DNA of 64,000 nucleotides from a bacterium (GTDB lineage: Bacteria > UBA8248): assembly GCA_965204535.1 (NCBI GenBank), contig CBDBEV010000001.1:416001-480000 (forward strand). The letters run 5' to 3'. The notes beneath the pieces were generated by a model that had not been told where the DNA came from, made no database searches, and saw only the letters and a list, made by a program, of their open reading frames with translations. Shown piece by piece: positions 43,671 through 63,522 of this stretch. The translations under genes were made by a program, and so were the position numbers. Numbering within the stretch: position 1 is the stretch's first letter; each line of letters begins with the position of its first letter.

Positions 43671-44501
43671 GAGAACTCCTCATGCTGGCTCGGGAAGTAT
43701 AGCGGCAGGGAATTGTACGTTCGGGGTTCTGTCAGTCAAGCCGATTCTTTCGGGATCGTCCGCTCCGTTTGACACGACACGGACGCAAGACGCTACGCCG
43801 AGGCGCAGTTGACGAAGCGAAGCGTTTTCGATGATGCGGGAGGGCTGCCGGCAGGGCGCATCTCCCCGCAATTGCCGTCACGGGACCCGAGGAGAACTCA
43901 CCTAGAATATCGAAGCGGCCAGGCGCGTTCGACGAACCCGAATTTCTGAAAAATTCGATAAATTCCGATAAATTCACGGGGTTTTTCGATAAATCAGCCT
44001 CATCGGATATTCCGGGCCGTTCTCATCGGCGATGGAATCCGTATAACCCATTGATATCATGTCGGATATATGTCTCGTCCATATCTGCCGGAATTCGCCT
44101 TCCCCAACCCGTAATCAAGCCGAAAGCGGACTCGTTCAAACTCCAGCGCATCACGGCGGGCAATCGTCCGTGAGCGCTCGGGCCAATCATTCAGCCAGGC
44201 CGTAACAGCAGTTCCAGAACAGCGGCAGTTCGAGATACCGTTCACCACCAATCGCCGGGCATTCGCAGGGACGACTCGCGAAACAGGGCGCCGCGGCGTG
44301 AGCGGCATTGTTCCTTTTTTTCCGCAGCGCCTCGCTGCACGTTCTCCGGCGACCCTCGTTTTCCGGAAAACGCCCGTGATTTCAGGCTGAACCGATGAGC
44401 GACCCGCTCGCGGGAGCGGTCGCGGACTCTTCCCGGGTGTACCTTCCGCGCTAGAAACAACGATTGAACGGGCGCTCGTCCTTTCCTTATGTTCGCGCGC
44501 C

Positions 44502-45221: not shown

Positions 45222-45250
45222 AGAGATATTCGGGAGAAGACGGACGGACT

Positions 45251-46294
45251 TCACAGGCCGTAGCGCAGCCTCGCCATCGCGCCCTGTTTCGCGAGCTGTC
45301 CCTGCGCGTAGCGCCCCGGCATGACCGGCGACTGCCAGCGCCCGGCAATCTGCATCTCGACCAGCGACGCCCCCGCCGTGGCCAGGCTCTGCGCGCCCCC
45401 CACGCGCAGGCTGTGTCCGCTGATGCGTCCCTCCACGCCCGCGGCCTTCCCCCACCGCGCGATGATGCTCCGGATGCTCCTCTCCGTCAGGCGCGCCGGC
45501 CGAAGCCGTCCCCCCTTGTACACGCCCCGGAAGAGCGCCCCCTCCTCGATACCCGCGCGCGCCAGCCAGGCCCCGACGCGCGCCACCGTCGGCTCGCCCA
45601 GAAACTGCACGACGCCCTCGCCCTCCTGGTCCGTCTTCGAGCGGCGGATCAGCACCGTCTGCTCCTCCAGGTCCACGTCCTCGATGTCGAGCGCCTCGAC
45701 CTCCGACACCCGGAGCAGGGCGTCGCTCGCCACCGCCACGATCGCCGCGTCGCGCAGACCGCCCAGGGTCCCCGTCCCCTCGGCCAGCGCCGCCGCGCGG
45801 TCCGCCTGCTCCCAGCGCACCCCCACCACCTGGCCCCGGCCGCGCTCTGCGGCCAGGCGCCGGAAGCCGGCCAGCACCCGCTCCGAGGCCGCCCCCGCCG
45901 GGGAGGGCCGGCCGTTCAGCTTCGCCCGGAAGCGAAGCGCCGCGACCGCCATCGCGGCCACGGCCGCCGAGTGCCCCTGCTCGTAGAGATCCCCCAGGTA
46001 CGCCGCTATCCCGGCGTCGGTCTCGGGGTTTCCCGAGCGCTCGAACCTCCTGAGCGCAGTCTCGTACACTCGCCGCGTGTTCTCAGACATCGACGCCTTC
46101 GCCAGGTAGGCGGCCGCACGGGCCGGTCGGGCCGGCCTCCTCGTCAAAGCGATGTCCTGTTCCGGGTCGGGCGGTGTTGCCCCAGTCGTCATGGCGAGAA
46201 GCCAACCTTCCGGGTCAGCGGCCGTTTCCATTCCCTGAGGCCGTTCCAGGGCCTCGTCGATTGCCGAGTATAGACGACGGCGGGGAATTTCCAA
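45251..46294 (-). CDS. Cre/TnpS-like tyrosine recombinase
   Basis: SENTRRVY N-domain, RDAAIV...LRVSE, RRSKTDQ, SGHSLRVG, GRW.S..MP.RY. Confidence 0.9.
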   Translation of the reverse strand: MEIPRRRLYSAIDEALERPQGMETAADPEGWLLAMTTGATPPDPEQDIALTRRPARPARAAAYLAKASMSENTRRVYETALRRFERSGNPETDAGIAAYLGDLYEQGHSAAVAAMAVAALRFRAKLNGRPSPAGAASERVLAGFRRLAAERGRGQVVGVRWEQADRAAALAEGTGTLGGLRDAAIVAVASDALLRVSEVEALDIEDVDLEEQTVLIRRSKTDQEGEGVVQFLGEPTVARVGAWLARAGIEEGALFRGVYKGGRLRPARLTERSIRSIIARWGKAAGVEGRISGHSLRVGGAQSLATAGASLVEMQIAGRWQSPVMPGRYAQGQLAKQGAMARLRYGL

Positions 46295-46346
46295 TAAAAA
46301 AAACCGTTTCGCAGGGGAATACCGGCGAAACGGCGGGTTTCTGGAG

Positions 46347-46535
46347 TCCGTTAATCGTTATTATCAGAAAATATAACACCTCTCAAGGCCATGTCAAGCG
46401 CAATTCCGGGGTCCCCGGAGAGGTTTCGGGCGCCGTTTTGCGTCTTTTCCCGCTCATTTACGGCCCGGATGCGCCCCGAAACGCCTCTCCCGGCGGAAAA
46501 CGGGGCTTATGGCATCCGATAATAACGATTATCGG
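46347..46535. promoter_or_regulatory. Two inverted lox-like recombinase core sites flanking a sigma70 promoter
   Basis: CCGTTAA-TCGTTA-TTATCAG (46348-46367) and CCGATAA-TAACGA-TTATCGG (46516-46535); minus-strand TTGACA-N16-TATATT with TG extension at 46370-46397. Confidence 0.65.
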
Positions 46536-46726
46536 CGGGCAGGCCGGGTGGCAGGCGGCTCGCCTCTGGAGGCAGTGAAAGGCGGGCGCATGCCGCAGGA
46601 ACCCGCCTCTCGCGGAACCACCGGCCCGGAGCATGAAAGGGTTCAAGCCCGCCGTATTTCAGGCGGCCCGGAATACGAATCACCAGTTTGTGAAGGCCCG
46701 AAATAAAAGCTGAAGGGAGGCATCGC

Positions 46727-48406
46727 TTGGAGAGGCTTGCGACCGGAGTCGCATCGGCTACAGTCCGTCATCCAAAAGGGGCCGGCATGAGCCCCGGACG
46801 GCTGCTCGGGCACCCGCAAGCGCGCCACTGTCTCACCGCCGCCCTGGTGCTCGCCGTGTTCTGTGCGCTCGCCGCGTCGCCCGCCGTGGCGGCGGAGAAG
46901 CCACAGGATCCACGGCAGGAGCGGACAGGCACGAACGGCCCTGACGACCTGCCGGGCACTGACGGCAACGATCTGCTCAACGGCAAGAAGGGCAAGGACG
47001 TGCTGCGCGGCTTGGGCGGCAACGACGTGCTGCGTGGCGGCAGGGGTGCCGATAAACTCCTGGGTGGCCGCGGCAATGACAAGTTGCACGGCGGGAGGGG
47101 CGACGACACCTTGACCGGTGGGTCGGGTGCCGACCTCTTTGTGTTTTCGCGCCGGAAGCCGGGTGACGACATCATCACCGACTTCGAGGCCGGTGACGCC
47201 ATCGTGTTGGTCAAGGACCCGAAGGCCGACCCCTGGCCTTCGGTTGCCGACATCCTGGCCAGCGTGGTGGAGCAGGACGACCGCTACACATATACCCTGT
47301 TTCCCGGCCTGACGGTGCAGACGAGCACAGCTCTGCGGGCCGGGGATTTCGTGTTCTCCACCGCCGCGCCGAGTCTGGCGGCTGTCACGGCGCACGGAAT
47401 CGCCGGCGCGATCGCCAGTCTCGAAAAGCACGCCCTGGGTTCCCCGTTTCTTAGCTGGACCAACATCGACCGCACGCTCACGTTCGGGGTTCCGTACCAC
47501 GTGTTGCCGGTCTCCCTGCACAAGCCGAGCAAGGGCATCCTCGGCGGCGCGCTCGACAACGATGAAGATCCGTCGAACGGCACCGCGTTCGTCGATGCGG
47601 ACGCCCCTCCGGCGATCTCCGGATGGGCGGGAAGCGCGAAGGAGTGGAGCCGCACGGCCGGTGCCGGCGTCACGCTCACCGACACCGTGGCCCTGTACTC
47701 GAAAGCAAGTTCCGGGGAGACGTATCTCTCCTTCGGGTGGTGGGCGAGAGTTCCCGACTCCAGCGCCGTTGGTCTCGGGACATTCGGGAATGACCCGATC
47801 CTCTCCACCGCAACTGTTGGCCGGAAGAACAGCAACGGCCTCAACGCCGCGTGGCCGCGCGGTGCCAACGCCTTCGTGGCGGGCCGGCACAAGTGGTGGC
47901 CCGGCTGGGATCAACTCGATGCGCTGTCCGGCGCCGCGACCTATGTCGGCGCCTCCGCCGGGCTATGGTCGGAACGCGCGGCCGGCGAGCGCGACGGCGC
48001 GTCCGGCGCGTTCACGGCGGACGCCGTCCTCACGGCGGATTTCGACCATGACACGCAGTACGTGGCCCTCTCGGGCAGCATCGACAACTTCAGGGACGCC
48101 TCGGGCACCCCGCTCGGAAGCTGGACGGCAACGCTCGCCAACGAGAGCGGCGGGCAGTTCGGGGGCCAGATTCACGGTGGAGCCATGGCATACAACGGCA
48201 ACGCCGCCGGTGATGCCGACGGCCGCAACTGGACCGGCGGGTGGGTCGCCCAGTTCTTCCGCCGTGCCGCCACCGATGCCCAGAGCGCGCATCCCACCGC
48301 GGTCGGCGGTGTGTTCCAGGCGCATCACGGCACGCCGGCAATGGCGGCGTCGAACGACCAGGGCTTCCTCGGCGTGGTCGGCGCCTTCGGAGCCGAGAAG
48401 CAATAG
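46727..48406 (+). CDS. Secreted protein with RTX-type Ca-binding repeats and a C-terminal TbpB-like beta-barrel
   Basis: Signal-like LTAALVLAVFCALAASPAVA, several GGxGxDxL nonapeptides, C-terminal GAATYVG..FTADAVLTADF..GSIDNF..W..QFF..GAFGA; start may be 46787. Confidence 0.75.
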   Translation: MERLATGVASATVRHPKGAGMSPGRLLGHPQARHCLTAALVLAVFCALAASPAVAAEKPQDPRQERTGTNGPDDLPGTDGNDLLNGKKGKDVLRGLGGNDVLRGGRGADKLLGGRGNDKLHGGRGDDTLTGGSGADLFVFSRRKPGDDIITDFEAGDAIVLVKDPKADPWPSVADILASVVEQDDRYTYTLFPGLTVQTSTALRAGDFVFSTAAPSLAAVTAHGIAGAIASLEKHALGSPFLSWTNIDRTLTFGVPYHVLPVSLHKPSKGILGGALDNDEDPSNGTAFVDADAPPAISGWAGSAKEWSRTAGAGVTLTDTVALYSKASSGETYLSFGWWARVPDSSAVGLGTFGNDPILSTATVGRKNSNGLNAAWPRGANAFVAGRHKWWPGWDQLDALSGAATYVGASAGLWSERAAGERDGASGAFTADAVLTADFDHDTQYVALSGSIDNFRDASGTPLGSWTATLANESGGQFGGQIHGGAMAYNGNAAGDADGRNWTGGWVAQFFRRAATDAQSAHPTAVGGVFQAHHGTPAMAASNDQGFLGVVGAFGAEKQ

Positions 48407-49464: not shown

Positions 49465-51090
49465 ATGAATTTCAGGGATAAATCGATTGGCGGGTTGTAC
49501 GCTCTCGCGCCGGCGGCGGTGTTCGCGCTGACGCTGGCGGGCTGCGGCGGTGGCGGCGGTACTGCGACGCCGACCACGATGCCCGGTCCGCAGATGGCGT
49601 GCGAGGACGCGGGCGGGCGGTGGCATGATGACGATACGTGCACCTCGGCCGCGGATCTGGCGGCAGAGCGAATGGCTGCGCAGCGCGAGGCCATAAGTGA
49701 CGCCATCATGGAGGCGATCACCGCGGTCGACGCCGTGGACAACGACTCCACCGACGCCGAGGTGAGCGCCGCCGACATGGCGGTCGCGGACGCGAGGAGC
49801 GCCATCGCGGCCGCGGCCAACGTTCCGGACGAAGAGAAAGCCGCGAACACCGGGACGGTCGACCTGCTCGCAAGCCAGCTTGCCGACGCCAAGGCGGACC
49901 GCATGGCCCACATGGACGACGCCAGGAAGGCTGCGGCCGCGGCCATGATGGCAACGGCCATGAAGCTCCATGCCGGCATCGGCAGCGATCCCCTGGCGGA
50001 CTCCGGAGCCGGACGGCGGATCGCCGCATATAGCGGGACCAACGACGCCGACATCACGGTGACCATAGGCGCCAATGCACAGGCACTGAAGGAAAACAAG
50101 GATGCGACGGTCCCCGCCAACCACGGCTGGGAGGGCAGGAAGTACACGGGCGGCACGTCCGAGGCGATCGTCTTCTCGAACGTCGGCGAGCCGACGGAGG
50201 GGGCGAAGTTCAACGCCCGGCACACCTTGGCTACCGCGGACACCGCCACCGACGCCACCAAGGCGGGTGAGTTGACCATTGCCACGGCCGGCGACACTGA
50301 CGTCCAGTCGAGAGTCGCCAGCCCGCGCTTCGACCAGTCCGCCGGGACCAAGACGTTCAAGTTGCCGGCCAATATGGTCCGGGTGGTGATTCCCGGCAGC
50401 TATCACGGAGTGTCCGGCACGTACTACTGCACGCCCGGTAGCGGTCAGACGTGCTCCGCTGCCGTAGCCGCAAAAGGGTTCACCCTTGCGGGCGGGAGCT
50501 GGGCGTTCAAGCCCACCGACCCGGAGACCCGGCTCATGGATGTGCCGGACGCAGACTACGCTTCCTACGGCGGGTGGCTCCACATAGCCGCGAACGGAAC
50601 CTGGGCCGCGAGCGCATTCGCAGACTACAAAGGTGGTGACGGTTCAGCCGAGAACGCCAGCGGCATCGATACGTTGCACGGAACGGCGAGGTACATGGGC
50701 GGCGCGGCCGGCATGTACGCTCTCTACAGCGCCACCGGGGGGACGAACGACGCCGGCACCTTCACCGCGAGGGCGACGCTCGAGGCCGACTTCAGCGACA
50801 ATTCGATCACGGGCGCCATCGACCGGTTCATGGGCGCGGACGGTCAGTCGCGGAACTGGTCCGTCGAGTTGAAGGAGGCCGCGGTCGCCGCTACGGGTGG
50901 CATTAGCCGCACTGCAGATAACGATACGGTGTGGACCATCGACGGCACGGCCGCCGCCGCCTCCGGCGAGTGGTCCGGCCGGTTTTACGAAAATGGCGAC
51001 GACGGTGTTCCGAAGGTCGCGACCGGAACGTTCCACTCGATGTTCAGCACGGACGGCCGGATGGTCGGCGGCTTCGGCGTGAACCGCTAA
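49465..51090 (+). CDS. Surface lipoprotein with a TbpB-like C-terminal barrel
   Basis: Lipobox LAGC then GGGGG linker, Ala-rich helical stalk, C-terminal GTARYMGGAAG..FTARATLEADF..GEWSGRFY..GGFG. Confidence 0.8.
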   Translation: MNFRDKSIGGLYALAPAAVFALTLAGCGGGGGTATPTTMPGPQMACEDAGGRWHDDDTCTSAADLAAERMAAQREAISDAIMEAITAVDAVDNDSTDAEVSAADMAVADARSAIAAAANVPDEEKAANTGTVDLLASQLADAKADRMAHMDDARKAAAAAMMATAMKLHAGIGSDPLADSGAGRRIAAYSGTNDADITVTIGANAQALKENKDATVPANHGWEGRKYTGGTSEAIVFSNVGEPTEGAKFNARHTLATADTATDATKAGELTIATAGDTDVQSRVASPRFDQSAGTKTFKLPANMVRVVIPGSYHGVSGTYYCTPGSGQTCSAAVAAKGFTLAGGSWAFKPTDPETRLMDVPDADYASYGGWLHIAANGTWAASAFADYKGGDGSAENASGIDTLHGTARYMGGAAGMYALYSATGGTNDAGTFTARATLEADFSDNSITGAIDRFMGADGQSRNWSVELKEAAVAATGGISRTADNDTVWTIDGTAAAASGEWSGRFYENGDDGVPKVATGTFHSMFSTDGRMVGGFGVNR

Positions 51091-52100
51091 GAGGAGTAGC
51101 GGCGAAGCAGGTGCCCGAAGCCGTGGGCGCGCGCATCGAGGGGAGCGCCGCCCCGACGCGGCCGACGCTCGGGGGCCATGAAGTGGCGCTCTTCGTTCAG
51201 CGGCACAGAGGGCGTGCTCTCTCGATGGCGGCGTGACGGCGGGCGTGATGGGCGCCGATTACGAGTCGGGGGGGGGGTCCTCGCGGGCGTCGCGTTCGCC
51301 AGCACCCGGGCTCTGCGCCCTCCGGGGCCTGTGAGCTCGACCTCCGCGCCTCGCAGCGTCTCGGCGTCCTTCAGATCCGCGAGCGTGACCTCGCGCCCGT
51401 CGGGGAGACGGGAGGTGACCTCGCCTAGCACCTCCGCCCCGGAGCTTCCCGGCAGGCCCAGCGCCTCGATGATGCGACGCGCCTCGCGGTTGATGCTCGC
51501 GGGCTCGGCCGTACGCGCGTCGAACACCGCCATCCCCACCGGCGAGGTTTCCACCAGGGCCTCGAGACCCGCCCGCGCGCGGCGCTCCTCGCGGTGCGCC
51601 CTCGCGTTCGCGACCGCCCCCGCCGCCTGGGAGGCGAACAGCACCAGCAGCTCCTCGTCCTCCTCGGTAAAACCCTCTCCGCCCTCCTTGTCACCAACGA
51701 AAAAATTCCCCATGTGCGCGCCCTGGTGGCGTATCGGCGTGCCCTGGAAGGTCCGGCACAGGCCCAGCTCGGGCGATAGCCCCAGCGAGCGGATGTGAGC
51801 GGGAAAATCGTCCACCCTCAGTGGCGTCTCCTGATCGCGAAGGTACTCGAACAGCACGAGCCCGTCGGGCAGGCAGTTCGTCAGGCGATGGACTTCTTCT
51901 GCGCTCAGCCCGGAGGTGACGAACTCCCTGAGCCCTCCCGATTCGTCCACCGTGGTGATCATGGAGTAGCGCGCGCCGATGAGCGCGCGGGCGCCCTCCA
52001 CGATATCCGTGAGCACGGTCTCAGGCTCCAGGCTCGTGGTGATCCGCGCAAGCGCCGCGCACAGCCGCGAGATGCGCCCCGATTCGTCGTTTCCCTTCAT
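51087..52100 (-). pseudogene. Truncated GAF-PAS sensor kinase (no HisKA/HATPase)
   Basis: GAF (IVEGARALIGARY..GFTEEDEELLVLFASQAA), PAS (LVETSPVG..NREA); homology ends near a G10 tract at 51268-51277. Confidence 0.7.
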
Positions 52101-52393
52101 CGTCAGTGCCTCCCGGGCAGGGAAAAGAAGAAAAACGCAATAATACACGATAAATACATGAATACAAAGAGATTAAATATGAAACAGATAGAATGTTTTT
52201 GTAAAATGAAAGATGAATTTGGTGGCCGGGTTTGCATTGTCCAGGGAGGCGGCAAACCGGATCGGGAGGAGTTGTTCGCCTTCTACGCCTGCTCGCCAGA
52301 GAGCACGCGTCGAGCGGCTACCATCGTAACGTCGCCTTCCAGACGAACGTTTGTGGAAAATGGTAATAAAAACTATCAAAAGGAGAGAAGGAA

Positions 52394-52723
52394 ATGAGAA
52401 AAATCAAGATGGTTTTTGTCGTGATGTTCATCGTTTGCGGGGCGCTCGCTCCTGTTCAGGTTTTTGCTACGACTGAACCTGCTCAGCCAAGTACCGATAC
52501 AAGAGAAACTGAATGCAGAAACGGTTGGAATTCGAGTTCGGCATCCCAAACTTGCACCGCCAGCAGATTTTCCTCACCCTCAGACCGGCCTGACACCTGT
52601 TATATTTACGCTATCTGTCAAGGCTTGAACAAGACGGTTTCTGGTGGAATCACGGTTAGTCCGAGGAGTGCTGCCAGTAACATTAACAACTGTAACGGCA
52701 CTATGCAGACGAGTGCTTGTTGA
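52394..52723 (+). CDS. Small secreted six-cysteine protein (family copy 1)
   Basis: AAGGAG RBS, signal peptide ending VFA, CxxxWxxSSAxxTC..CxxxxxC..NCNG..C. Confidence 0.8.
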   Translation: MRKIKMVFVVMFIVCGALAPVQVFATTEPAQPSTDTRETECRNGWNSSSASQTCTASRFSSPSDRPDTCYIYAICQGLNKTVSGGITVSPRSAASNINNCNGTMQTSAC

Positions 52724-52994
52724 ATAAGCACCAAGATGAAATTGTTTGAATGGATGAGGAAAACAGGAGCGTCAAGAACAGGGCGGCTAATTCATGAATT
52801 TTCGGCCAAATCCGTCGTGGATTGCGCGCAGGCGTCGAACGATTGTCCATAAGATTCGAACTCCCCGTCCGCCCCGAATTTCGGTCGGGGTCGATCATGT
52901 CATTTTCGCCGAAAAATCGGAAACTTCATTCTGCATACCAGGGGGTGAACGTCCCTGGGGTTCCTCTCGCATTTTGGGGAAAAAGAGCTTCGCC

Positions 52995-53425
52995 ATGTGG
53001 AGAAAATGGACACGGATCCTGCCGGTAATCGACACGCTCGCGCTCACCAGCGCCGCGCCCGCCGCTGACAAGGTCATTCTCACCCAGCCGGTGGACAGCC
53101 TGAGCTTCTTCCCCATCTACGTGGGACGGATAAAAGGATTCTTCAAGGAAGAGGGGCTCACCCTGGACGTGAAGGCCACCGCAGGCGGCGGACCGCACCT
53201 GACGGCCGTCCTCGCGGATAAGGCCGAGTTCACCGCCAGCCCGGGCACCTACCAGTTGAACGCACTGAACTCCGGCAAGCGGGCCATCGGCTTCGTGGAC
53301 CTCCTGCGGCGCAACATCATCGGGATGGTCATCCACAAGGACGCGGCCAAGAAAGCGGGCATCAAGGATGGCATACCCCTCATGGACAAGGTCAAACGCG
53401 CGAAGGGCCTCAAGATCGGCATGAT
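52995..53425 (+). pseudogene. Fragment of an NMT1/SsuA-type ABC substrate-binding protein
   Basis: FFPIYVGRIKGFFKEEGLTL..GG..AVL..KGLKIG, then homology is lost. Confidence 0.6.
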
Positions 53426-53692
53426 GTGGCCGGGCGAGAAGAGAGACCGCGCGCGAGACGGCATCCGAAACGGCATATCATCGCCGGAACAATTCGCGCG
53501 GAAAAGAACTCTCTGTTCGAAGAGGCGTTTGGGAACGATACTCAGGCTCGAAACGCAACATTTGACCTTTATCGGGAAATATCGGGTCCGCTTCATGCCA
53601 TTTCACGTGGATAGGCCACCGCAGGGAGTAGTTCCGCTCAGGTTCCGCCACGAGGACGAGGACGTCCCCGTCGATGCGCGCCGGGTCCGCCG

Positions 53693-55312
53693 GTGAGCGG
53701 CTCACGGATTGATGCCGCGATGGATGCGCTACGCCGGTGCGTGGCTCGCGACCGGCGCCGCCCGGCGGCGGCGGCCGTTCTGGGCGCCCTGGGCGTGGCG
53801 GCGCTGCCGCCGGTCCACGCCGTGCCGCTGCTGGTCGTCTCCTTCACGGGTTTCGTCCGGCTGATCCATTCCGTCTCCTCGCCGTGGCGTGCCGCCGCCG
53901 TGGGCTGGTGGTTCGGTTTCGCCCATTTCATCATGGGCGTGTACTGGATCGCTCCGGCTGCGCTCCTGCTGACCGAATCCACGCCGGCGGCCGTGATCGG
54001 GCTGCTCGGCCTCTCGGCGATCCTCGCCATTTTTCCGGCACTCGCCGCCTTCGCTGCGCGGTTGCTTCCGCTGGCCATCGCCGGCCGCGTGCTCGCTTTC
54101 GCCATCGCCTGGAGCGCCTCGGAGTGGCTGCGCGGCAACGTCCTGAGCGGTTTCCCGATGAACATCATGGGCACGGTCTGGGCGCCCTCGCTCGCCATGA
54201 TCCAGTTCACCGCGCTTGCCGGGGCCTATGGCTTGGGGTTCGTGACCGTTCTCGCCGCAGCCGCCCCCGCGGCGCTGTCCCTCCCTCCCCGGAGCGGACG
54301 TTCCTGGGCGCTGCCTGCGGCGGCGTTCGGACTGCTGACGGCGGTCTGGGCGGGCGGAGCCGTCCGCCTCGCGTTCGCGCCCGAGCCGCCGCCCACCGGC
54401 GTCAGCCTGCGCCTCGTACAGGCCAATATCCATCAAAGGTTCAAGTGGCGCGAGAAGAGGCGCAAGGCGGTACTGGATCAACACGTGCGCCTCTCGCGCC
54501 GGCCGGGCTTCGAGGCGGTCGACCTGGTGATCTGGCCGGAGATGACGGTGACCTTCAATCTAGCCGGGAATGCGCCGTTGCGCGCCCGCCTCTCCCGGGC
54601 AGCGCCCCCGGACGGCCACCTCCTGACGGGCTCGTTGCGCCGCACTCGAAAGGCGGGACGCGCGACCGCCGTCTGGAACAGCCTTCACGCGCTGACGCCC
54701 GGAGGCGCCATCGCGGCGACCTACAACAAACACCATCTGGTGCCTTTCGGGGAATACATGCCCCTTCGCGAGGCACACTCCTTCCGTGTCGTCCCCTACG
54801 AATCGGACGACTATTCCGCCGGGCCGGGGCCGCGTACCCTGAGCCTGCCCGGCGTGGCACCCTTCAGCCCCCTGATCTGCTACGAGGCGATCTTCCCAGG
54901 CGAGGTGGTGGCCAGCGGAGAGCGTCCGCGCTGGCTGCTAAACATCACCAACGACGCCTGGTTCGAGGGCACGTCCGGCCCCTGGCAGCACTTCGAGGCG
55001 GCCCGCCTGCGGGCGGTCGAGGAGGGCCTGCCGCTGGTGCGCGCAACGAACACCGGCATCTCCGCCGTCGTCGACGCCTGGGGCCGCGTGACGGGGCGGC
55101 TCGGGCCGGGCGAGGAAGGCGTGCTCGACGTCCCCCTGCCGCCGCCGACGAGAGCGCCGACGCCTCACGCGCGGTTCGGCGGCTGGACGTTCGCCGCCTT
55201 GCTGCTTCTCGCCGCCTCGGCCCTGCCCGCATTCGGGCTGCGGGGGAGAACCAAAGAGGGCGGGCCGACGGCGACGAAAAAAATTGTGTCTCCCCCACGG
55301 GCATTGGTATGA
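53693..55312 (+). CDS. lnt: Apolipoprotein N-acyltransferase (Lnt family)
   Basis: Multi-TM N-terminus, EWLRG..GFP, catalytic WPE / YNKHHLVPFGEY / LICYE, NITNDAWF, RATNTGIS. Confidence 0.93.
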   Translation: MSGSRIDAAMDALRRCVARDRRRPAAAAVLGALGVAALPPVHAVPLLVVSFTGFVRLIHSVSSPWRAAAVGWWFGFAHFIMGVYWIAPAALLLTESTPAAVIGLLGLSAILAIFPALAAFAARLLPLAIAGRVLAFAIAWSASEWLRGNVLSGFPMNIMGTVWAPSLAMIQFTALAGAYGLGFVTVLAAAAPAALSLPPRSGRSWALPAAAFGLLTAVWAGGAVRLAFAPEPPPTGVSLRLVQANIHQRFKWREKRRKAVLDQHVRLSRRPGFEAVDLVIWPEMTVTFNLAGNAPLRARLSRAAPPDGHLLTGSLRRTRKAGRATAVWNSLHALTPGGAIAATYNKHHLVPFGEYMPLREAHSFRVVPYESDDYSAGPGPRTLSLPGVAPFSPLICYEAIFPGEVVASGERPRWLLNITNDAWFEGTSGPWQHFEAARLRAVEEGLPLVRATNTGISAVVDAWGRVTGRLGPGEEGVLDVPLPPPTRAPTPHARFGGWTFAALLLLAASALPAFGLRGRTKEGGPTATKKIVSPPRALV

Positions 55313-55391
55313 TGCGCTATCGAGAGAGAGTGTTCCGTTGCGAAGTCGAATATGCGACTTCCAGTCGAAACCAACAGAGGAGGAAGGTGAA

Positions 55392-55708
55392 ATGACGGCT
55401 AGCATCCTGGTATCGGCGGTGTTTTTAGTTTCCATCGCGATGGCGCCCGCCGCAGCGCGTGCGTCCAGTGACCCCCCCCGCCGCCCAAGACCGTGGTCGA
55501 AGCCTGCACCGAGAGCTGGCAGAACAGCGCTGCGGACTCGACCTGCTCGAACGAGCAATTCACGAAAGTGCTGAACTACAGATGCCGGGTCACGGCGTAT
55601 TGCCAGACGAACAGCGGCGGCACGAACAAGACATGGAAGACGGTGGAGCGCGACGACGCCGACAGGCTGGTGAACTGCAACGGCATCCTCAGGCTCGACA
55701 CCTGCTGA
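55392..55708 (+). pseudogene. Small secreted six-cysteine protein (copy 2), frameshifted in a C8 tract
   Basis: Signal MTASILVSAVFLVSIAMAPAAARA in one frame; KTVVEACTESWQNSAADSTC..NCNGILRLDTC in another; shift at 55472-55479. Confidence 0.8.
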
Positions 55709-55857
55709 CGCAGCGGGTAGCGGTGCGAAGGGGAGTGGTCGAAGCCTCGGCCTTCCTTTCCTTTCCCGTATATCGCCCTGAGGCGCGCAAAACGCGCATC
55801 GGCTCGATTTCCGGTTGTGCCCGCGAACGATGCGCTGATGAGGAGTGCGCCGCCCGA

Positions 55858-57057
55858 CTATGACCCGCGCAGGGCCGCGACGGGATCGAGCCTGGCCGCC
55901 TGCAATGCGGGATAGAACCCGAAGAACACGCCGGCGGCGCCGGCCACGCCCACCCCGAGACCCATGGCCGCCGCCGAGATCAGGAATGTCCAGCCCGTGA
56001 ACTGGCAGATCGCCCAGGTCGCCCCGATCCCCGCAGCGGTACCGACCATGCCGCCGGCCAGTGACAGCATGAGCGATTCGATCAGGAACTGGCTCTGGAT
56101 GTCCGTGCGGCGCGCACCGAGAGCGCGCCGGATGCCGATCTCCTGGCGCCGCTCGGCCACCGACACGAGCATGACGTTCATGACCCCTATCCCTCCTACG
56201 AGGAGCGAGATACCGCCCACCGAGCCGAGCATCAGCGCGAACAGCCGCATCTGCTTGTGCATCTGCTCGATCAATTGCTCGGCGCTTCGCACGCGGACTT
56301 CGAGGCCGGGCGCTTTGCGCCGGAAATATCCTTCGACCTCCCTCGTCGCCGCCACATGGTGCGCTCCGGGACTCATGCGCGCCGTGACATAGCGGATCCC
56401 GGGGGAGCGAAACACTCGCTGCGCCGTCGAGACGGGGATGATGATCGAGCGGTTCGCATCGAAACGGCGCTTGCCTTGCGGAGTGCGCTTCAGCACGCCC
56501 ACGACGGTATAGGCGGCGGCACCCGCCTTCACGGTCTCGCCGACGATACGCTCGAAGTCGGTTTCGCGCATGTCCGAGGCGACCTGCGCCCCGACCACGC
56601 AGAAATACCGGCGGTGGTCAAGATCGGAAATGTGCCTGCCCGCCTCGACCCGAAGCTTGTTGAGGTCGGCGAGGGCGGCGGTGGCGCCGATGAGCGTCAC
56701 GTCCTTGATCGTCCTTCCGGCGAAAATGATCTCTTCGTAGGAGGTGGCGTAGGGCGCCGCCGCTGCGATGGCGGGAAGCGCCGTGAGTCCGAGGGCTTTC
56801 TTCGGGGAGACGGCAATCGGGCCTGTTCCGGCGGCGCTCTGCTGGAGGCGGATGTTCAGAATGTCCGTGCCCAGTTCCCGGAAGTGCTTCAGGGCTTCGT
56901 CCCTGGCGGTCATCCCCACCGAAACCATCGCGATCACCGAACCGACGCCGATCACGATGCCGAGCAGGGCGAGCAGGCTGCGCTGGCGGGCGGTGGCCAG
57001 GCTGCTCGCCGCCTCCTTCAGATTGGCCTTGAGGAGAACAATCATCCAGCTCACCAA
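55858..57057 (-). CDS. MacB/FtsX-type ABC permease
   Basis: RSLLALLGIVIGVGSVIAM, periplasmic domain, GGIGVMNVMLVSVAERRQEIGIRRALGA, PA..AARLDP..AL. Confidence 0.93.
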   Translation of the reverse strand: MVSWMIVLLKANLKEAASSLATARQRSLLALLGIVIGVGSVIAMVSVGMTARDEALKHFRELGTDILNIRLQQSAAGTGPIAVSPKKALGLTALPAIAAAAPYATSYEEIIFAGRTIKDVTLIGATAALADLNKLRVEAGRHISDLDHRRYFCVVGAQVASDMRETDFERIVGETVKAGAAAYTVVGVLKRTPQGKRRFDANRSIIIPVSTAQRVFRSPGIRYVTARMSPGAHHVAATREVEGYFRRKAPGLEVRVRSAEQLIEQMHKQMRLFALMLGSVGGISLLVGGIGVMNVMLVSVAERRQEIGIRRALGARRTDIQSQFLIESLMLSLAGGMVGTAAGIGATWAICQFTGWTFLISAAAMGLGVGVAGAAGVFFGFYPALQAARLDPVAALRGS

Positions 57058-57801
57058 TCACGGCGCGCCGGGGACGGAGGCCCGCTCCGCCGGAAGCGCC
57101 GCTTCGCTCAGGACGCCGTCGAGAATCCGGGTGCGCCTCGCGCACTGGCGGGCAACATCCCGGTCATGGGTGATGATAATGGCGGTGAGCCCCTCTTCGG
57201 CGTTCAATCCGGCGAACAGCCCCATGATCTCGCCGCCTGTATCCGCGTCCAGGGCGCCGGTGGGTTCGTCGGCCAACAGGATATCCGGTTCGCCCACCAG
57301 CGCCCGCGCGATGGCGACGCGCTGCCGCTGGCCTCCGGAAAGCTCGGCGGGCCGATGGCCTGCGCGGTCCCCCATGCCCACCTTCTCGAGCATTTCGCGG
57401 GCCCGGCGCCGCATGATCGCCGCGCCTGCGCCCCGATACACCAGCGGAACGGCGACGTTCTCCCAGGCCGTCAGGCGCGGAAGCAGATGGAACGACTGGA
57501 AAACGAAGCCGATGCTGGCGTTGCGCAGGGCGGACAGTTCGGCGTCGCTCATCGCGCCGATCTCGCGCCCCTTGAGGAAGTAGGAGCCGGAGGTCGGCCG
57601 GTCGAGAAGGCCGATGATGTTCATCAGCGTTGATTTGCCGCAGCCCGACGGCCCCATGATCGACAAAAGATCGCCCTTGTACACGTCAAGCCTGATTTCC
57701 CGGAGTATCTCCGTCTCGATTGGCCCCGTGGCGTAGCTCTTGCGGATATCGACCAGGCTCAGCATGATCTCCGGGTGCGCTTCGCCGTTTCCTTCGTTCA
57801 T
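57058..57801 (-). CDS. MacB/LolD-type ABC ATPase
   Basis: GPSGCGKST, IGFVFQ, LSGGQRQRVAIARAL, LADEPTG, ITHD. Confidence 0.95.
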   Translation of the reverse strand: MNEGNGEAHPEIMLSLVDIRKSYATGPIETEILREIRLDVYKGDLLSIMGPSGCGKSTLMNIIGLLDRPTSGSYFLKGREIGAMSDAELSALRNASIGFVFQSFHLLPRLTAWENVAVPLVYRGAGAAIMRRRAREMLEKVGMGDRAGHRPAELSGGQRQRVAIARALVGEPDILLADEPTGALDADTGGEIMGLFAGLNAEEGLTAIIITHDRDVARQCARRTRILDGVLSEAALPAERASVPGAP

Positions 57802-57804
57802 CGC

Positions 57805-59649
57805 TTATCGACCTCCGATCAGGATTTCATCGCCGGGAGATATCCCGTCGATGATCTCGACCGAGTCCACGGTGGTCATGCCGGTGACCACCTCGACCGC
57901 CCTGGCCTCGCCGGAGCCGCGGTCCCTGACCCACAGCCAGGGCCGGCCGTCCTGCAACTCCACCGCCCCGACGGGAATCAGCAATGCGTTCTCCTTTTCG
58001 TAGACGACCACCTCGACCCTGGCGGACATGCCCAGGCGCAGCAGCCGGCGCACCTCCTCCGTCAGGGACTCCACGACGGCGGCGACCTCGAAAGTCGGCA
58101 GTCCCCTGCGGCCGGCGGCGGGGAGGATGGCTTGCGAAGAAACGCGGTTGACCTCGCCGCGCAGCACGACGCCGGGAAAGGCGTCGCCCACGACCCTGGC
58201 CGATTGGCCCGGGCGGATGCGCGTTACGTCCACCTCGTCCACATGGCCGATGACCGTCAGGCCCTCGAGGTCGCCGATCGTCAGCAGCAGGTCTCCCCGC
58301 TCGACGAACGCGCCTCTCGCCAGCTTGTCGCTCTCCTCGCCTGGACGCGCCGCCGACTTTTCTCCCTTCGAATGCAGGATTACCCCGGACACCGGTGCGG
58401 TCACCCTCGCCTTGCTCAGGATTCCCTCCAGGCGTTTCAGCCGGGCGCGCGCGTTGGCCAGTTCCAGCCGCGCCACGTCGAGTTCGGCGGCGCCCCTTGC
58501 CAGGACCGCCTCGAGGTCCATCTCCGCCGCCTGGAGGTCCAGCAACTGGTTGCGGTGCTCCCGCTCGGCCGCCTCGTGCTCCGACGCCGGGATGATGCCC
58601 CGCTTCAGCAGGAAGGCGGTTTCCGAGAGCCGGTTCTTCAGAGACTCCAGCGCGATCCTCCTCTTGCTCACGGCCCTCCGGGCGCGTGATACTTCGGTGT
58701 GATTGGACCAGTCCTTCAGCTCCTCGACCCGGTCGCGCGCCTTGATATGGGCGACCTGCGCCTCGCGATGGCTGATCCGAACCTCGGCAACGTCCATGTC
58801 CAGCAGTCGCTGGCCCTTGGCCACTCGTTGGCCCGGCCGGACGTGCACCGCATCCACCTTGCCCTGCATCGGGCTGACGACCTCGACCTCCCGTCTCGGC
58901 GCGAGCCGCCCGAGAATGGTGACGGTCGAGGAAATGCGCCGCGGCTCGACCACCAGAAGCCGGAGATCTTCCGGGGCGGGCGGAGCCGGGACGGCGGCTC
59001 CGCTTCCGGCCGGCGGGCCGGCGCCCGTGCCGACGTCCCAGAAGTACAGGCCGATCGCGGCGAACAGCATCACCAACGCCAGCACCGCGCCCGTCCTGAC
59101 GACACGGATATTCTTCGAGGCTACGCCCAGTTTCCGGCTCGTCTCCTCCAGCTTCAGATATGCTTCCCGGAGTTCGGCGTGCTTCGCCTCCATCTCCCTG
59201 GCCAGACGAAGTTCGGTTTCCCGCAGCTCCCTGATCTCGGTGATGTCGCTGAACAACGAGATCACGCCAATCCTGGCGGTCTCGCCGCTGCGCTCATCCC
59301 TCAAATACGTCGTCGCCATGGACAGGGAGCGTGTCTTGCCGCCGAGGGTCGCCTCCACCACGCGCTGATGGACCATGGACGAGTCGTAGACGGCGTCGAA
59401 GATCACGTCGGTGAATTCGTCCAGGCCTTCTTTTTGCGAGAAAACCTCGAAGAAGTTGCGGCCGATCACCGCCTCGCCCGTCATGTTGCAGATCTCAGCG
59501 GCCGCCGCGTTGAAACTCGTGATGACTCCGTCGGCGTCGATCGACATGACCCCGCTCGCCACGTTGTCCAGGACATTCTTGTAGATGAGATCAGCGGACG
59601 ACCGGTCGCCGCTCCCGGGCGCTCGCCTCCTGTCCTCCTCGCCGCTCAC
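57805..59649 (-). CDS. Periplasmic adaptor (MacA/HlyD-like) with an N-terminal PAS domain and coiled coil
   Basis: GTG start overlaps the TolC-family stop (GTGA); PAS VLDNVASGVMSIDADGVITSFN..IGRNF..FSDITE; TM helix; SPMQGKV..V.PGQRV.KGQ, APVSGVI, VDEVDV..IRPGQ, LRLGMSA, GISPGD. Confidence 0.85.
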   Translation of the reverse strand: MSGEEDRRRAPGSGDRSSADLIYKNVLDNVASGVMSIDADGVITSFNAAAAEICNMTGEAVIGRNFFEVFSQKEGLDEFTDVIFDAVYDSSMVHQRVVEATLGGKTRSLSMATTYLRDERSGETARIGVISLFSDITEIRELRETELRLAREMEAKHAELREAYLKLEETSRKLGVASKNIRVVRTGAVLALVMLFAAIGLYFWDVGTGAGPPAGSGAAVPAPPAPEDLRLLVVEPRRISSTVTILGRLAPRREVEVVSPMQGKVDAVHVRPGQRVAKGQRLLDMDVAEVRISHREAQVAHIKARDRVEELKDWSNHTEVSRARRAVSKRRIALESLKNRLSETAFLLKRGIIPASEHEAAEREHRNQLLDLQAAEMDLEAVLARGAAELDVARLELANARARLKRLEGILSKARVTAPVSGVILHSKGEKSAARPGEESDKLARGAFVERGDLLLTIGDLEGLTVIGHVDEVDVTRIRPGQSARVVGDAFPGVVLRGEVNRVSSQAILPAAGRRGLPTFEVAAVVESLTEEVRRLLRLGMSARVEVVVYEKENALLIPVGAVELQDGRPWLWVRDRGSGEARAVEVVTGMTTVDSVEIIDGISPGDEILIGGR

Positions 59650-61145
59650 CGGGCGCCCTCCCGGTCCACCTTGCCGACCTCGATGTTCCAGCGCTTGAGC
59701 GTGGTGCCCAGGGTGCGGTCCAGCGCCGTCAGGGCGGCCCGATGGGCTATGATCGAGTCCAGCTCGCTGTTCTGGGCCGACACCAGATCGTCCTCGAAGG
59801 CGACCAGGCGGAAGTTCGACGACAACCCCAGGCGCAGCTTTTCCTTTTCGATCTCCGTCTTCTGCTCCACGAGTTCGCGGGCGGAGCGCGCCAGTTCCAC
59901 CTGCCGGCCCGACAGTTCCACTTCCCGGATGGCGTTGCTCACCTCGATGTCGATTCGCTGGCGCAGGTTCGCAAGGACGTTGCGGGACTTCTCGAGTGCG
60001 ACGGCCGCCTTCACGTGTTCGTATTTCCCGGGATCCGTCGCCGCCCGGCCTATCGGGACGCCGAGATACAGCCGGGCGCCGTAGTCGGTGTCGTCGAGAC
60101 GGCCCGCGGCGGCGCCCGGGGTCCTGCCCGTACCGGAGAATTTCGTCGACAACTCCACCGAGAGATCCCACAGGCGTTCGTTGGCGGCCACCTTCGCCCG
60201 GATTTCGGCGATCCTGACGAGCACAAGCGCCCGCAGGTAATCCGGGCGATGCAGACGGGCCGTCTCGATGCCGTCCGCCGCGTCGGTTCGCGGCGGCTCC
60301 TCCTCAAGGGCGCCGGCGAGGGCGTCCGTAAGCCGGAGCCGGGTCCGGCTGTCGATGTCGAGGATGTCCGCCAGCGCCAGGCGGGCGGCGTCGAGGCTGT
60401 TCCGCGCCGAGAGCAGACGCAACTCGCGGCTGGCGATATCGGCTTGCGTCTCCACGATGTCGCGCTCGGCCATCCGGCCGGTCTGCACGAGCAGCTCGTT
60501 CACCCTCAGGAGATCACGGGCGCGCTCGAGGGACTTGGCCCGGATTTCCACGCGTCGCTCGGCCTGCATGTAATCGCGATAGCTCTCGACGACCGAGGAA
60601 ACGACTTCGATGATCGTCTGCCTGAGGGCCAGAATATTGATCTCCTCCGCAAGCCGGGCGGTTTTGACCGAGGCCGTGTTGACCCCGGCGCCCGCTCCGC
60701 GCAGCAGGGGCTGCGTGAACGTGAACTCCAGCGCGCTCGAATACCGCGGCTGCGATGAAGCGCCTCCGCTCCTGCGGCCGCCGCTCCAGGTGACCCTGAA
60801 TGTCCCGCCGGCGGGCAGGCGCACCGTGGCCCTCGACGACACGCCCGCCGCGCCGGTGTCCGTGGACGGCGCGGTGCGGCTTTTTTCGATATAGGGGCCG
60901 ATGGTCACGTGCGGACGGAACTTGTTCTCCGCCACCCGGAGAGAGAAGCGTTCCGCGACGCGATCGAGCCGCGCGTTGATCAGTTCGCGGTTGTTGCGCA
61001 TGGCCAGGGAAACGGCCTCCCCGAGGGAAAGGTGGAGATGCTCCGTCATATCGCCTTCGGGCTCTTTTCCGAACCCCGGGGCCGCACAGCAGAACAGGCT
61101 GGCCGCGGCGATGCAGGAAGCCGCCTTTGCCGAGAAAGTCGTCAC
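59646..61145 (-). CDS. TolC-family outer membrane channel
   Basis: Signal peptide, LSLGEAVSLAMRNN, FTQPLLRG, second OEP repeat ..E.EKLRLGLSSNF; GTG start after GGAGA. Confidence 0.9.
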   Translation of the reverse strand: MTTFSAKAASCIAAASLFCCAAPGFGKEPEGDMTEHLHLSLGEAVSLAMRNNRELINARLDRVAERFSLRVAENKFRPHVTIGPYIEKSRTAPSTDTGAAGVSSRATVRLPAGGTFRVTWSGGRRSGGASSQPRYSSALEFTFTQPLLRGAGAGVNTASVKTARLAEEINILALRQTIIEVVSSVVESYRDYMQAERRVEIRAKSLERARDLLRVNELLVQTGRMAERDIVETQADIASRELRLLSARNSLDAARLALADILDIDSRTRLRLTDALAGALEEEPPRTDAADGIETARLHRPDYLRALVLVRIAEIRAKVAANERLWDLSVELSTKFSGTGRTPGAAAGRLDDTDYGARLYLGVPIGRAATDPGKYEHVKAAVALEKSRNVLANLRQRIDIEVSNAIREVELSGRQVELARSARELVEQKTEIEKEKLRLGLSSNFRLVAFEDDLVSAQNSELDSIIAHRAALTALDRTLGTTLKRWNIEVGKVDREGAR

Positions 61146-61325
61146 GACCGTGTTTCTCCGGATTCGACAGCAACTCGCCGGGATGCGCAGGAGTTGTACG
61201 CAGGATTCGCGGACCCCCAACTAACGCCTTCCTGCACCGGACGGCTCTCATGGTTCGTTGCCCGGCCCCGCAGGGATTTCGCGCCCGGCCCGCCATCCCC
61301 GCCCATATGATCGCCGGCCCGCGGT

Positions 61326-61470
61326 TCAGCAACTACCGACCTTCAGCCAGCCGCTGCAGTTGAGCAGCCGCGCGGCATCCTCCGGGTCCATCACTTTCCA
61401 GGAGCGTCTCGTACCGCCTCCCACCCGGCACCTTGAGTACAAGTACCTGGTGGCTTGATCGGCTTGGGAT
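61326..61470 (-). pseudogene. Deleted relic of the six-cysteine protein (copy 3)
   Basis: Manual translation SQADQATRYLYSRCRVGGGTRRSWKVMDPEDAARLLNCSGWLKVGSC*; no start codon. Confidence 0.65.
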
Positions 61471-61476
61471 CGTCCC

Positions 61477-61788
61477 TCAGCAGCTCAGCTTGAGCCTGCC
61501 GTTGCAGTTCACCACCGAACCTGCATTGTCCGGGTCGAGATCAATCGTGGTATACACGTTTACGTATTCCGACTTGCGGCAGTTTGCCCCGATTCTGCAC
61601 TCGCCGTAATTCACCTCCCGGAACCCCTCATTCCAGCAGGTCGAATTCGCGGAACTTGTCTCATAATTATCCTCGCAAGTTTCAGCCACGGACTTTGGCG
61701 GCGGCGGGGAAGTGCCAGATATTGCCGGGTTTGTGGATGAGGTCAGCAAAACAACCAAGGTAAACACAAGCACAAGTTTGGGCATCAT
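61477..61788 (-). CDS. Small secreted six-cysteine protein (copy 4)
   Basis: GGAG RBS, signal ending AIS then GTSPPPPK, same Cys spacing, TTIDLD..VVNCNGRLKLSC. Confidence 0.82.
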   Translation of the reverse strand: MMPKLVLVFTLVVLLTSSTNPAISGTSPPPPKSVAETCEDNYETSSANSTCWNEGFREVNYGECRIGANCRKSEYVNVYTTIDLDPDNAGSVVNCNGRLKLSC

Positions 61789-61838
61789 GTTCTTTTCTCC
61801 GCATCCTCAATAAGTCCGTTCGGGCTTGCAGCGCCTTG

Positions 61839-62051
61839 TCAGCAACTCCCGACCTGCAGCACCAATCGATTGCAGTGATGTATCTTGCCGGCATCCCCTT
61901 CCGACACACCAGTGATGATCGCATCCCCCCTGTCGTCGCCGGTAGTGGTCTGGTATGTACATCGGGCACCGAAATTGCACTTGTTGTCAGTCACCCACGT
62001 ATTTCTCCGTTGGCAGGTCTGGCTGGCAGGCGGTTCAATGAGCGGTTCAAT
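61839..62051 (-). pseudogene. Unannotated six-cysteine domain (copy 5); start and first Cys are out of frame
   Basis: Manual translation ..PASQTCQRRNTWVTDNKCNFGARC..GDAGKIHHCNRLVLQVGSC*. Confidence 0.7.
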
Positions 62052-62055
62052 TTAT

Positions 62056-62415
62056 CTAGCACGCTACCGTTTGCATGGTTTTTTTATCGATACAGTTTTG
62101 GCACGCCCCTTCGACATAATCTCTGTTGCAATTACTCAAGTTCCCCGCATTGTTGGCATCCACAACAATACTCGTACTCTTGAACTCATTTGCGGTGTTG
62201 GTCTCACAGCTCGCGCTTACGCGACAATTGTTTTCGTCAACCTTGGTAAACGTCTCCCCATTGCAGGTATGACGCGCAGACGATGCGTTATTATAGTTTT
62301 GCTGGCAAAAGAACACCGTATCCCGAACTGGCTGTGGATCCCCCGCCGCATTCGCTGTTGAAAAAGACCCTGCCGTCACCGTTGCCAAAATCACCATCAT
62401 GACTAGACTTTTCAT
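62056..62415 (-). CDS. Small secreted six-cysteine protein (copy 6)
   Basis: AAGGAG RBS, MKSLVMMVILATVTAGSFSTANAAG signal, CQQNYNNASSARHTC..CRVSASC..NCNR..C. Confidence 0.8.
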   Translation of the reverse strand: MKSLVMMVILATVTAGSFSTANAAGDPQPVRDTVFFCQQNYNNASSARHTCNGETFTKVDENNCRVSASCETNTANEFKSTSIVVDANNAGNLSNCNRDYVEGACQNCIDKKTMQTVAC

Positions 62416-63522
62416 GTGATATCTCCTTATATTCATCCGATAACTGCCTGCATCGCGCGCTGATGCCGGCCTCTTCTTCGGATGACGGGCTGTAGCCGAT
62501 GCCGCCGCCGTGCGCAAGCCCCGGCGGGCTCCCCTCGGGCAATGTCTCATTTTCGGATATCCCTCCCCAAGAAACATCTGTTCGTTTATTACTCAAATTT
62601 TACCAAAGTGGTATATCTTTTTCGTATTGCTTATCCCTGATTTCATATATTTTTCGTGTAAAATGCATTTTTTCTTGCAAAAACAGCGGCTGGGACCGAA
62701 TGGCGCATGAACTTTAGCCGATTCCTCAATGACTTGACCGCGACCCCTGACTGACCGGCCGCCGTGGCGTTTCTCTCCCGGTTCTGCGGTTGTTGCTCCC
62801 CAGATTGAAGACAGTGTCCGGCCAGCCGGCTGCGAGCGTAAGCGAGCCCCGTTCCTGTTCTTTGAAGGTCGATACTTTCACAGTCTCATACGCGCCCGGC
62901 TCCGGGGGGCGCGGCCTCTCGCTGCGGGCGGGCTCCTCCTGGGGCGCCTCCGCCGGCGGTGCGAAGCGGCGGGAGCGGGGGACGGCGCCGGGAAGGCCGG
63001 ATAAGCGATGCGGCACATATTTGCGACTCTGGCGGCAATCGTCATCGGGGGGGATACGCGACGCGCTGCTGAGACGCACCGGAAGGGAAAAGGACTGGGG
63101 GAAAAGCATGACGGATCCCCGGAGGCTCGGGTCAAGGTTCTTGTGACGATATGCGCTGTTCTCACAGCAGAGCGCCCGAACGGCAAGACAATACATGAGG
63201 TGGTTTCTCGAACCCGGCGGGAGGCGGGCCTGAAGCGACCGGCTGAATACAGAACAGGCGCCGCTGAGGCCCTGCAGCCGATTTTTCGGGAACGTTGCGA
63301 AATTCCTGCAGGAGCAGACGGACAAGCGATATCCAGAAGTACACGATAAAAACATTAAATAAAAGAATATAACACGATTAAGATATATAAAAGATGTACA
63401 GCTTTTGGTAAGATGAGGACGATAAACTGGAACAGATGTCCCATCGTGAGAAGTAGCCGGGATGAGCGCACCGCCCGGCTCTTTTTCGGGAAATCGCAAT
63501 AGCGGGAAGGGAGGATGAAACG

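Follow-up and report, generated by a model that had tools for sequence, protein, structure and literature searches.

Positions 52394 to 62415 of the window, i.e., of the 64,000-nt stretch of bacterial DNA analyzed here (UBA8248 lineage; contig CBDBEV010000001.1, positions 416,001 to 480,000), carry the genes for a pump of the MacAB-TolC type, the adaptor of which is fused to a PAS domain, for an extra apolipoprotein N-acyltransferase (Lnt), and for several copies of a small, cysteine-rich protein with a predicted cyanovirin-like fold. The balance tilts slightly toward the reading that this is a mobile cassette for two-step export, in which the small proteins are the cargo and those whose mature form begins with Gly become N-acylated. 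The two halves of this reading differ in strength: judged from sequence comparison, the pump very probably exports the cargo family, and the accessory Lnt would, with fair probability, acylate it. In the best reading of these comparisons, the cassette appears to work like the Aat/Cex system (AatPABCD/CexPABCD) of Enterobacterales by convergence, without being Aat by descent. All coordinates are positions in the window, C1 and C2 are contigs of the genome, and G and L numbers denote compared genomes and loci, respectively.

The PAS-adaptor pump and its linkage to the cargo genes

The components of the pump are encoded on the minus strand and show all the features of a MacB-family tripartite pump: a permease with MacB_PCD and FtsX domains (55858..57045), which is 30% identical to E. 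coli MacB; an ABC ATPase of the LolD/MacB type (57058..57801; Pfam and NCBIfam); a MacA-like periplasmic adaptor (57805..59649; HlyD_D23/HlyD_3, TIGR01730); and a TolC-family outer-membrane channel (59646..61148; PF02321, E 3e-31), whose gene overlaps that of the adaptor at GTGA. They converge with the lnt gene on the plus strand, and by Pfam and NCBIfam these five genes and their convergent arrangement are as the original prediction had described them. It had overlooked the PAS domain at the N-terminus of the adaptor (PF00989, E 4e-10, residues 23-121), along with a second cassette, an NMT1-like fragment, and family genes past the window end, which are described below. From its position ahead of the membrane anchor, the PAS domain would be cytoplasmic. 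For DevB and MacA, it has been proposed that the adaptor's cytoplasmic end regulates the pump (PMC5985334), and a PAS gate would fit with that; no paper on a PAS-adaptor fusion was found in the literature search.

The linkage of pump and cargo recurs in other genomes. Fifteen were found by the cargo search and had their surroundings fetched, and in nine of them (G013, G071, G069, G068, G169, G224, G723, G716, and G718) a PAS-adaptor pump lies within ~10 kb of the cargo, while in six (G220, G214, G410, G638, G693, and G418) linkage is absent or not showable; eight further genomes with cargo matches stand outside this count, being unexamined or covered by only 8-9 kb. As a control for chance, 79 MacB loci from a generic metagenome scan, 32 of them 8 kb or longer, gave no cargo match (0/79) and a single lnt (1/79). 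The linkage that the original prediction had anticipated thus holds for the pump, and lnt tracks a permease clade: the six permeases of genomes with an accessory Lnt group in a single clade (99) that branches in the same order as their Lnts, and near the 12 remaining genome-bin permeases no accessory lnt is found. Three genomes account for the five cassettes in which lnt adjoins the exporter (two each in G000 and G059, one in G224), and in G058 it is located on another contig. A weak, stop-containing lnt-like remnant was also seen at G020:C1:1626651-1626968 (L083), ~3 kb from two divergent cargo genes.

A second full cassette is present in the same genome, ~140 kb off (C2:326900-335925), with all its genes co-oriented in the order of three cargo genes, tolC, adaptor, ATPase, permease, cargo, and lnt. 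The two cassettes have a 5.6-kb block in common that is 96.6% identical, and their lnt genes are 82% identical at the DNA level, while the permeases owe most of their divergence to the periplasmic portion (residues 46-125 at 64% vs 96-98% at the membrane ends). The cargo domain occurs in only 3/51 genomes of the host phylum, which is a small one. The convergent layout of the window recurs in L023 from the Gammaproteobacteria, with five cargo genes, a pump of 62-78% identity and an lnt of 66%, as well as in the second cassette of L023's genome and in G224, and this recurrence implies that the cassette has moved horizontally, apparently across phyla. A plasmid search with one cargo homologue gave no match.

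The PAS-adaptor pump is also found next to arrays of small secreted proteins unrelated to the cargo (L025, L027, L086). It therefore has the look of a broad exporter for proteins that fold in the periplasm, to which Lnt is an optional addition. In L086 (719-11185), lnt is followed by a 103-aa, 8-Cys protein with a predicted Gly start (AFSA/GSAE), four more small secreted proteins, tolC, PAS-adaptor, ATPase, and permease. Its Lnt is divergent (27% identical) and its Cys-rich protein unrelated to the window cargo, so that the locus appears to be an independent case of the same layout.

Separately from this, the array in L025 (4087-8484) was seen to comprise ~7 secreted paralogues of 160 aa with 2-3 Cys in tandem, of which the one tested has no Pfam match. 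Relatives of the TolC protein at 33-37% identity are carried on plasmids of Rahnella, Deefgea, Azospirillum, Citrobacter, and Methylosinus (L035-L039; 5 of the 16 records were opened), and these five plasmid pumps gave no match to PAS, lnt, or cargo. They are flanked by hypothetical genes, which in Azospirillum B510 include three 759-bp genes in tandem.

The accessory acyltransferase and the cargo N-terminus

The acyltransferase gene (53693..55312, plus strand) was assigned by TIGR00546 (291 bits, cutoff 133), by alignment and by its place in a tree, and the alignment shows the catalytic set of E283, K346, E354, and C396 (numbered from the GTG at 53693) to be intact. It is an extra copy, because a housekeeping lnt, with its catalytic residues present and 35% identical to the window Lnt, is located on C1 within uvrB-uvrC-lnt-prfB-lysS-lolC-lolD (neighbor names were read from the open reading frame (ORF) sequences). 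A housekeeping role for the window gene, on which the original prediction had said its case would turn, was rejected on this ground. Same-genus genomes hold one intact lnt each in 7/7 tested.

A quick IQ-TREE analysis with 72 rows places the accessory copies (two each from G000 and G059, one each from G058 and G224) in one 13-row clade (SH-aLRT 98) nested inside alphaproteobacterial housekeeping Lnts, and the nearest genome-anchored relatives are single-copy, 63-66% identical, and located downstream of ybeY-ybeX in 7/7 checked. The one AatD row of this tree stands on a very long branch and shares no lineage with the window Lnt, and the direct comparison with AatD of EAEC 042 yields 20.8% identity over 207 aa at E 0.55. 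Because of this nesting and of the lack of a significant AatD match, the accessory Lnt appears to derive from the capture of a housekeeping gene, in an event separate from the origin of Aat. Within the accessory clade, several sister-conserved positions are altered, among them the loop after the third helix and the Gly of NDAWFG, which is kept in 13/13 sister Lnts and replaced in 11/12 accessory copies. The altered loops presumably shape substrate entry. A partial rescue of aatD loss by Lnt was reported by Belmont-Monroy et al. (PMC7478709) and is disputed by Icke et al. (PMC7943197); if real, it would make the capture of a housekeeping Lnt easier.

There are six loci of the small family in the cassette of the window: three intact, one frameshifted, and two C-terminal remnants. 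Copy 1 (52394..52723; 109 aa, six Cys, Sec-type signal) and copy 2 (55392..55708) flank lnt on the plus strand as originally described, except that copy 2 is frameshifted as assembled, at a C8 run near 55470, with a real mutation and an assembly error both possible. Four minus-strand copies had been claimed, of which copy 4 (61477..61788; 103 aa) and copy 6 (62056..62415; 119 aa, eight Cys) proved intact; the other two are C-terminal remnants, namely copy 3 (61326..61431), at the edge of the 5.6-kb duplicated block and matching the intact gene C2:327919, and copy 5 (61839..62032), whose DNA is 83% identical to the intact gene C2:481217. By our home-made rules, the predicted mature starts come out as they had been read before, with Gly for copy 4 (AIS/GTSPPPP), Ala (ANA/AG) or possibly Gly (NAA/G) for copy 6, Thr for copy 1 (VFA/TTEP), and Ser for copy 2.

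The cargo has no lipobox, and a predicted Gly+1 is enriched in it, far more so outside the window than inside, without being invariant. With a cleavage rule blind to position +1, which left three further cargo without a call, Gly+1 is found in 12/27 cargo of accessory-Lnt genomes vs 0/18 elsewhere and 6/165 background proteins. A second rule, tuned while viewing these sequences (five without a call, four skipped), gives 17/27 vs 1/17 in genomes without the accessory Lnt and 4/74 in the background. All 11 cargo of G059 begin with Gly (11/11) and the bias is strong in G000 as well. Gly+1 occurs in several cargo sub-lineages, and Thr+1 relatives from the Lnt-less G068 and G069 are placed among them with weak branch support.

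It has to be noted that a number of observations weigh against acylation as we propose it. The cleavage sites come from home-made rules and not from SignalP; counted by genome, the contrast is 3/4 vs 1/9 (p = 0.052); and the contrast is phylogenetically non-independent, as the four accessory-Lnt genomes share one cassette lineage and amount to one evolutionary event plus L086. Just one of the window's three intact copies, copy 4, has a clear Gly start, and the copies next to lnt begin with Thr and Ser. G058 (Gly 0/2) and G224 (1/3 scored, two unscored) have an accessory Lnt with mostly Phe+1 cargo, and the reverse, Gly+1 cargo without an accessory Lnt, is seen in G062 and G638, the latter being the one genome with Gly+1 among five out-of-sample single-lnt genomes read by eye. 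Furthermore, the majority of the family's exporters lack a neighboring lnt, the window cassette shows decay (one frameshift, two fragments, and an insertion ahead of lnt), and the accessory Lnt, still 63-66% identical to single-copy housekeeping enzymes, could keep its Cys specificity.

The alternative that survives best is built on these points: the pump would export its cargo unmodified, as in the case of the heat-stable enterotoxin STII, and lnt would be a captured canonical Cys-lipoprotein enzyme, either a passenger or serving foreign lipoproteins such as the one with an LAGC lipobox at 49465-51090. The recent origin of the Lnt from a housekeeping enzyme, the majority of family exporters that do without lnt, the non-Gly cargo inside Lnt-bearing cassettes, and the many LAGC-type copies in the genome would all be expected from it. 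It would not be expected from it that every host retains its own lnt, or that the extra lnt has stayed next to the pump in different phyla, its tree matching that of the permeases. Nor does it account for the excess of Gly+1, the change of sister-conserved Lnt positions (the NDAWFG Gly in 11/12), or the independent lnt-pump pairing in L086. Overall, we regard unmodified export as unlikely, if still worth serious consideration. The LAGC lipoprotein, which the original prediction had raised as a possible Lnt substrate, belongs to a genome-wide, multi-copy repeat family (five other near-full-length and many partial copies at 67-72% DNA identity, several near integrase-type elements), and no homologue of it stands beside the accessory lnt copies of G059 or G224; its candidacy as the main substrate was rejected for these reasons. 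It gave no Pfam match. Its barrel region resembles the C-terminal part of a secreted protein with RTX calcium-binding repeats encoded at 46727-48406 (paralogue at C2:1577447).

The genes around the cassette may be summarized briefly. Between copy 1 and lnt lies a chimeric ORF (52794..53696, plus strand) with a fragment of an NMT1/THI5-like binding protein (PF09084, E 8e-10), of which 52926-53436 is 86.6% identical to C2:2479917-2480440; L023 has no such fragment between cargo and lnt, and the ORF is inserted debris outside the system. Three further cargo-family genes follow directly beyond the window end, and an outer-membrane β-barrel gene (63523 to past 64000) is located between them and the cassette. 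The genome as a whole has 13 family matches. A ~215-bp repeat at 62676-62888 recurs 14 or more times elsewhere (81-86% identity, mostly with identical scores) and is possibly a MITE or an insertion-sequence end. Beyond the gcv genes, the accessory region begins on its left side with an HTH gene and a tyrosine-recombinase-like gene (44108-46720), which have many repeats genome-wide. Both cassettes have sensor genes of the GAF/PAS type, or fragments of such genes, next to them as possible regulators (window 51087-52148; L003; L001 4237-6696).

Predicted fold of the cargo

The extent of the cargo family became apparent only from a full HMMER scan, as single-sequence and profile word searches gave just 2 and 14 relatives. 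The scan returned 404 matches at E ≤ 0.001 among 50%-identity representatives, of which the best 150 were viewed and at least five false ones (long SEA-like or Thr-rich) were later removed. The domain occurs singly, in two- to six-fold tandems, and in Calx-beta fusions. A second unannotated Cys-rich module (~90 aa, KVVAKVD...CCxD) is often fused ahead of it, at times with Calx-beta behind (L307, L308, L260, L262, L263). No Pfam or NCBIfam family accounts for the cargo, a SEF14 match having been discarded because it covers the signal region only, and the cargo profile has no significant match to Aap (E 1.1). The original prediction of a new disulfide-rich family unrelated to the known cargo is upheld in this respect; the fold itself, in contrast, is predicted to be a known one.

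The six Cys are invariant in 86/86 aligned members, and DSBA-family matches number six in the genome. As modeled, copy 4 (pLDDT 93.9) forms a single 79-aa unit, and when it was compared with 48,161 chains the top five were all CVNH lectins (Z 6.5, 6.5, 5.9, 5.9, and 4.1; the next, unrelated chain 3.5), with the best superposition covering 55 residues, i.e., one CV-N domain in the definition of PMC4926178, at an rmsd of 2.7 (range 2.1-2.8). A divergent tandem homologue, modeled with a pTM of 0.48 and confident single domains, likewise has CVNH chains in its first three places (Z 5.9, 5.5, and 5.0). In Foldseek, cyanovirin-N comes first for copy 4, and in the ESM atlas CVNH is the top match for one query at 0.90. 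Consistent with these models, a Thr or Ser precedes Cys2 in 80/86 members, and in the motif N-C-[ND]-G the Asn and the Gly are each kept in 79/86. If the alignment is ungapped, they are in register with T7/T57 and N93/N42 of CV-N, the side chains of which contact the sugar (PMC8091458); the register comes from the motif and the ends of the aligned range. The cargo fold is therefore likely a single cyanovirin-N-like domain, and whether it binds glycans is, going by the models, an evenly balanced proposition.

Several of the comparisons tell against this assignment or leave it less firm. All fold Z-scores are below 8, the first place in Foldseek carries an E of only 0.076, a second cargo member ranks CVNH fourth in the ESM atlas (0.80), and the Pfam family CVNH (PF08881) is not among the 25 families listed for the 86 members at E ≤ 1; the cargo profile reaches CV-N in the PDB only at E 1.7. 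With such middling Z-scores, a CVNH-like fold remains likely, and a lectin role is inferred from it. A homodimer prediction scored 0.00 and was not used either way.

It is conceivable that export and acylation proceed as proposed and that the cargo is no lectin, its fold being used for protein binding or antimicrobial competition. The similarity is remote (Z up to 6.5), the surface is very variable, there are an additional helix and disulfides that CV-N lacks, and the antiviral activity of CV-N requires two sites (PMC4926178). We consider such a role improbable, given that both sugar-binding side chains of CV-N have conserved counterparts, that tandem repeats and Calx-beta fusions are what an adhesion module would be expected to show, and that no immunity-like gene is evident in the cassettes.

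The proposed route, related systems, and implications

In the route that we propose, the cargo would first cross the inner membrane via Sec and be cut by signal peptidase I, as suggested by the AxA-type sites and the absence of a lipobox, following which three disulfides would form in the periplasm, in keeping with the invariant Cys and the DsbA-family genes. The accessory Lnt would then transfer an acyl chain from phospholipid to the free α-amine of Gly+1, which stands ahead of a Pro-rich tether, with non-Gly members leaving unacylated. The MacB/adaptor/TolC pump would subsequently carry the cargo out of the periplasm, onto the surface or into the medium, with the pump perhaps gated through PAS by a cytoplasmic signal. 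Most speculatively, surface-tethered single-site domains may bind glycans multivalently.

A variant of this route would have the accessory Lnt acylate all cargo N-termini, be it Gly, Ser, Thr, Phe, or Leu, with recognition via the fold or the Pro-rich tether. The pairing of Phe+1 cargo with a still intact accessory Lnt in G058 and G224, and the Thr and Ser starts of window copies 1 and 2 on either side of lnt, would then need no further explanation; the strong Gly bias in G059 (11/11) and G000 would, and AatD itself requires an N-terminal Gly (Icke et al., PMC7943197). A residue-blind enzyme is accordingly considered quite improbable.

The only precedent described for Gly N-acylation of proteins with an export system dedicated to them is Aat/Cex of Enterobacterales (PMC7943197, PMC7478709), through which CexE is exported (PMC7943197). 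The cassette resembles that system, with its cargo Aap in EAEC and CexE in ETEC, in having TolC, an adaptor, a LolD/MacB-type ATPase, and a MacB-type permease encoded in a single operon, in a dedicated Lnt-family enzyme with the E-K-C triad and the auxiliary Glu apart from the housekeeping lnt, and in a ~10-kDa Sec cargo with no lipobox and, by predicted cleavage, often Gly+1. It differs in its full-length Lnt of recent alphaproteobacterial housekeeping origin, its PAS-fused adaptor, its arrays of paralogous 6-Cys cargo of another fold, its Gly+1 not being invariant, an Lnt that is optional in the exporter family, its non-enteric, uncultured hosts, and its gene order. The match to Aat made in the original prediction thus stands as a functional analogy and falls as orthology: descent of the cassette within the AatPABCD/Cex family, as a remote but genuine branch of it, for which the same five functional components plus a small Sec cargo might be cited, is largely refuted by the weak matches (E 0.55 for Lnt vs AatD; no significant BLAST match of permease to AatP or adaptor to AatB, nor of the cargo to Aap; E 0.02 for TolC vs AatA), the separate tree positions of Lnt and permease, and the different gene order, and can be set aside.

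The two-step route itself is shared with STII, which leaves via MacAB-TolC after Sec export and periplasmic disulfide folding (PMC5985334); unlike it, the cassette is dedicated and includes a TolC of its own, an ATPase and a permease encoded by separate genes, a linked cargo array, and an acyltransferase. From CVNH lectins (PF08881), to one CV-N domain of which the predicted core and the xTC and N-x-[ND]-G motifs correspond, the cargo differs in being one self-contained domain instead of two intertwined repeats, with an extra N-terminal helix, six Cys, and no Pfam match. From the alphaproteobacterial housekeeping Lnts (TIGR00546), which have the same catalytic residues at 63-66% identity and are single-copy genes downstream of ybeY-ybeX, the window Lnt differs as an extra enzyme with altered loops in a cargo/pump cassette. 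The literature searches gave no description of this cassette, with subscription journals mostly outside their coverage and supplements not included.

More broadly, and tentatively, Gly N-acylation coupled to TolC export may have arisen repeatedly by capture of an ordinary Lnt (Aat, this cassette, L086), here as a PAS-gated system that tethers half-cyanovirin lectins to the surface and crosses phyla. If a second origin from a captured housekeeping Lnt is true, it would provide a pair of ~65%-identical enzymes for the switch of Lnt from diacylglyceryl-Cys to a free N-terminus, which AatD, at ~20% identity, cannot show. The analysis also draws attention to a widespread, unannotated secreted domain that is probably a minimal lectin of the cyanovirin type, and to a family of MacB-type exporters whose adaptor is fused to PAS and whose neighbors are changing arrays of small secreted proteins.

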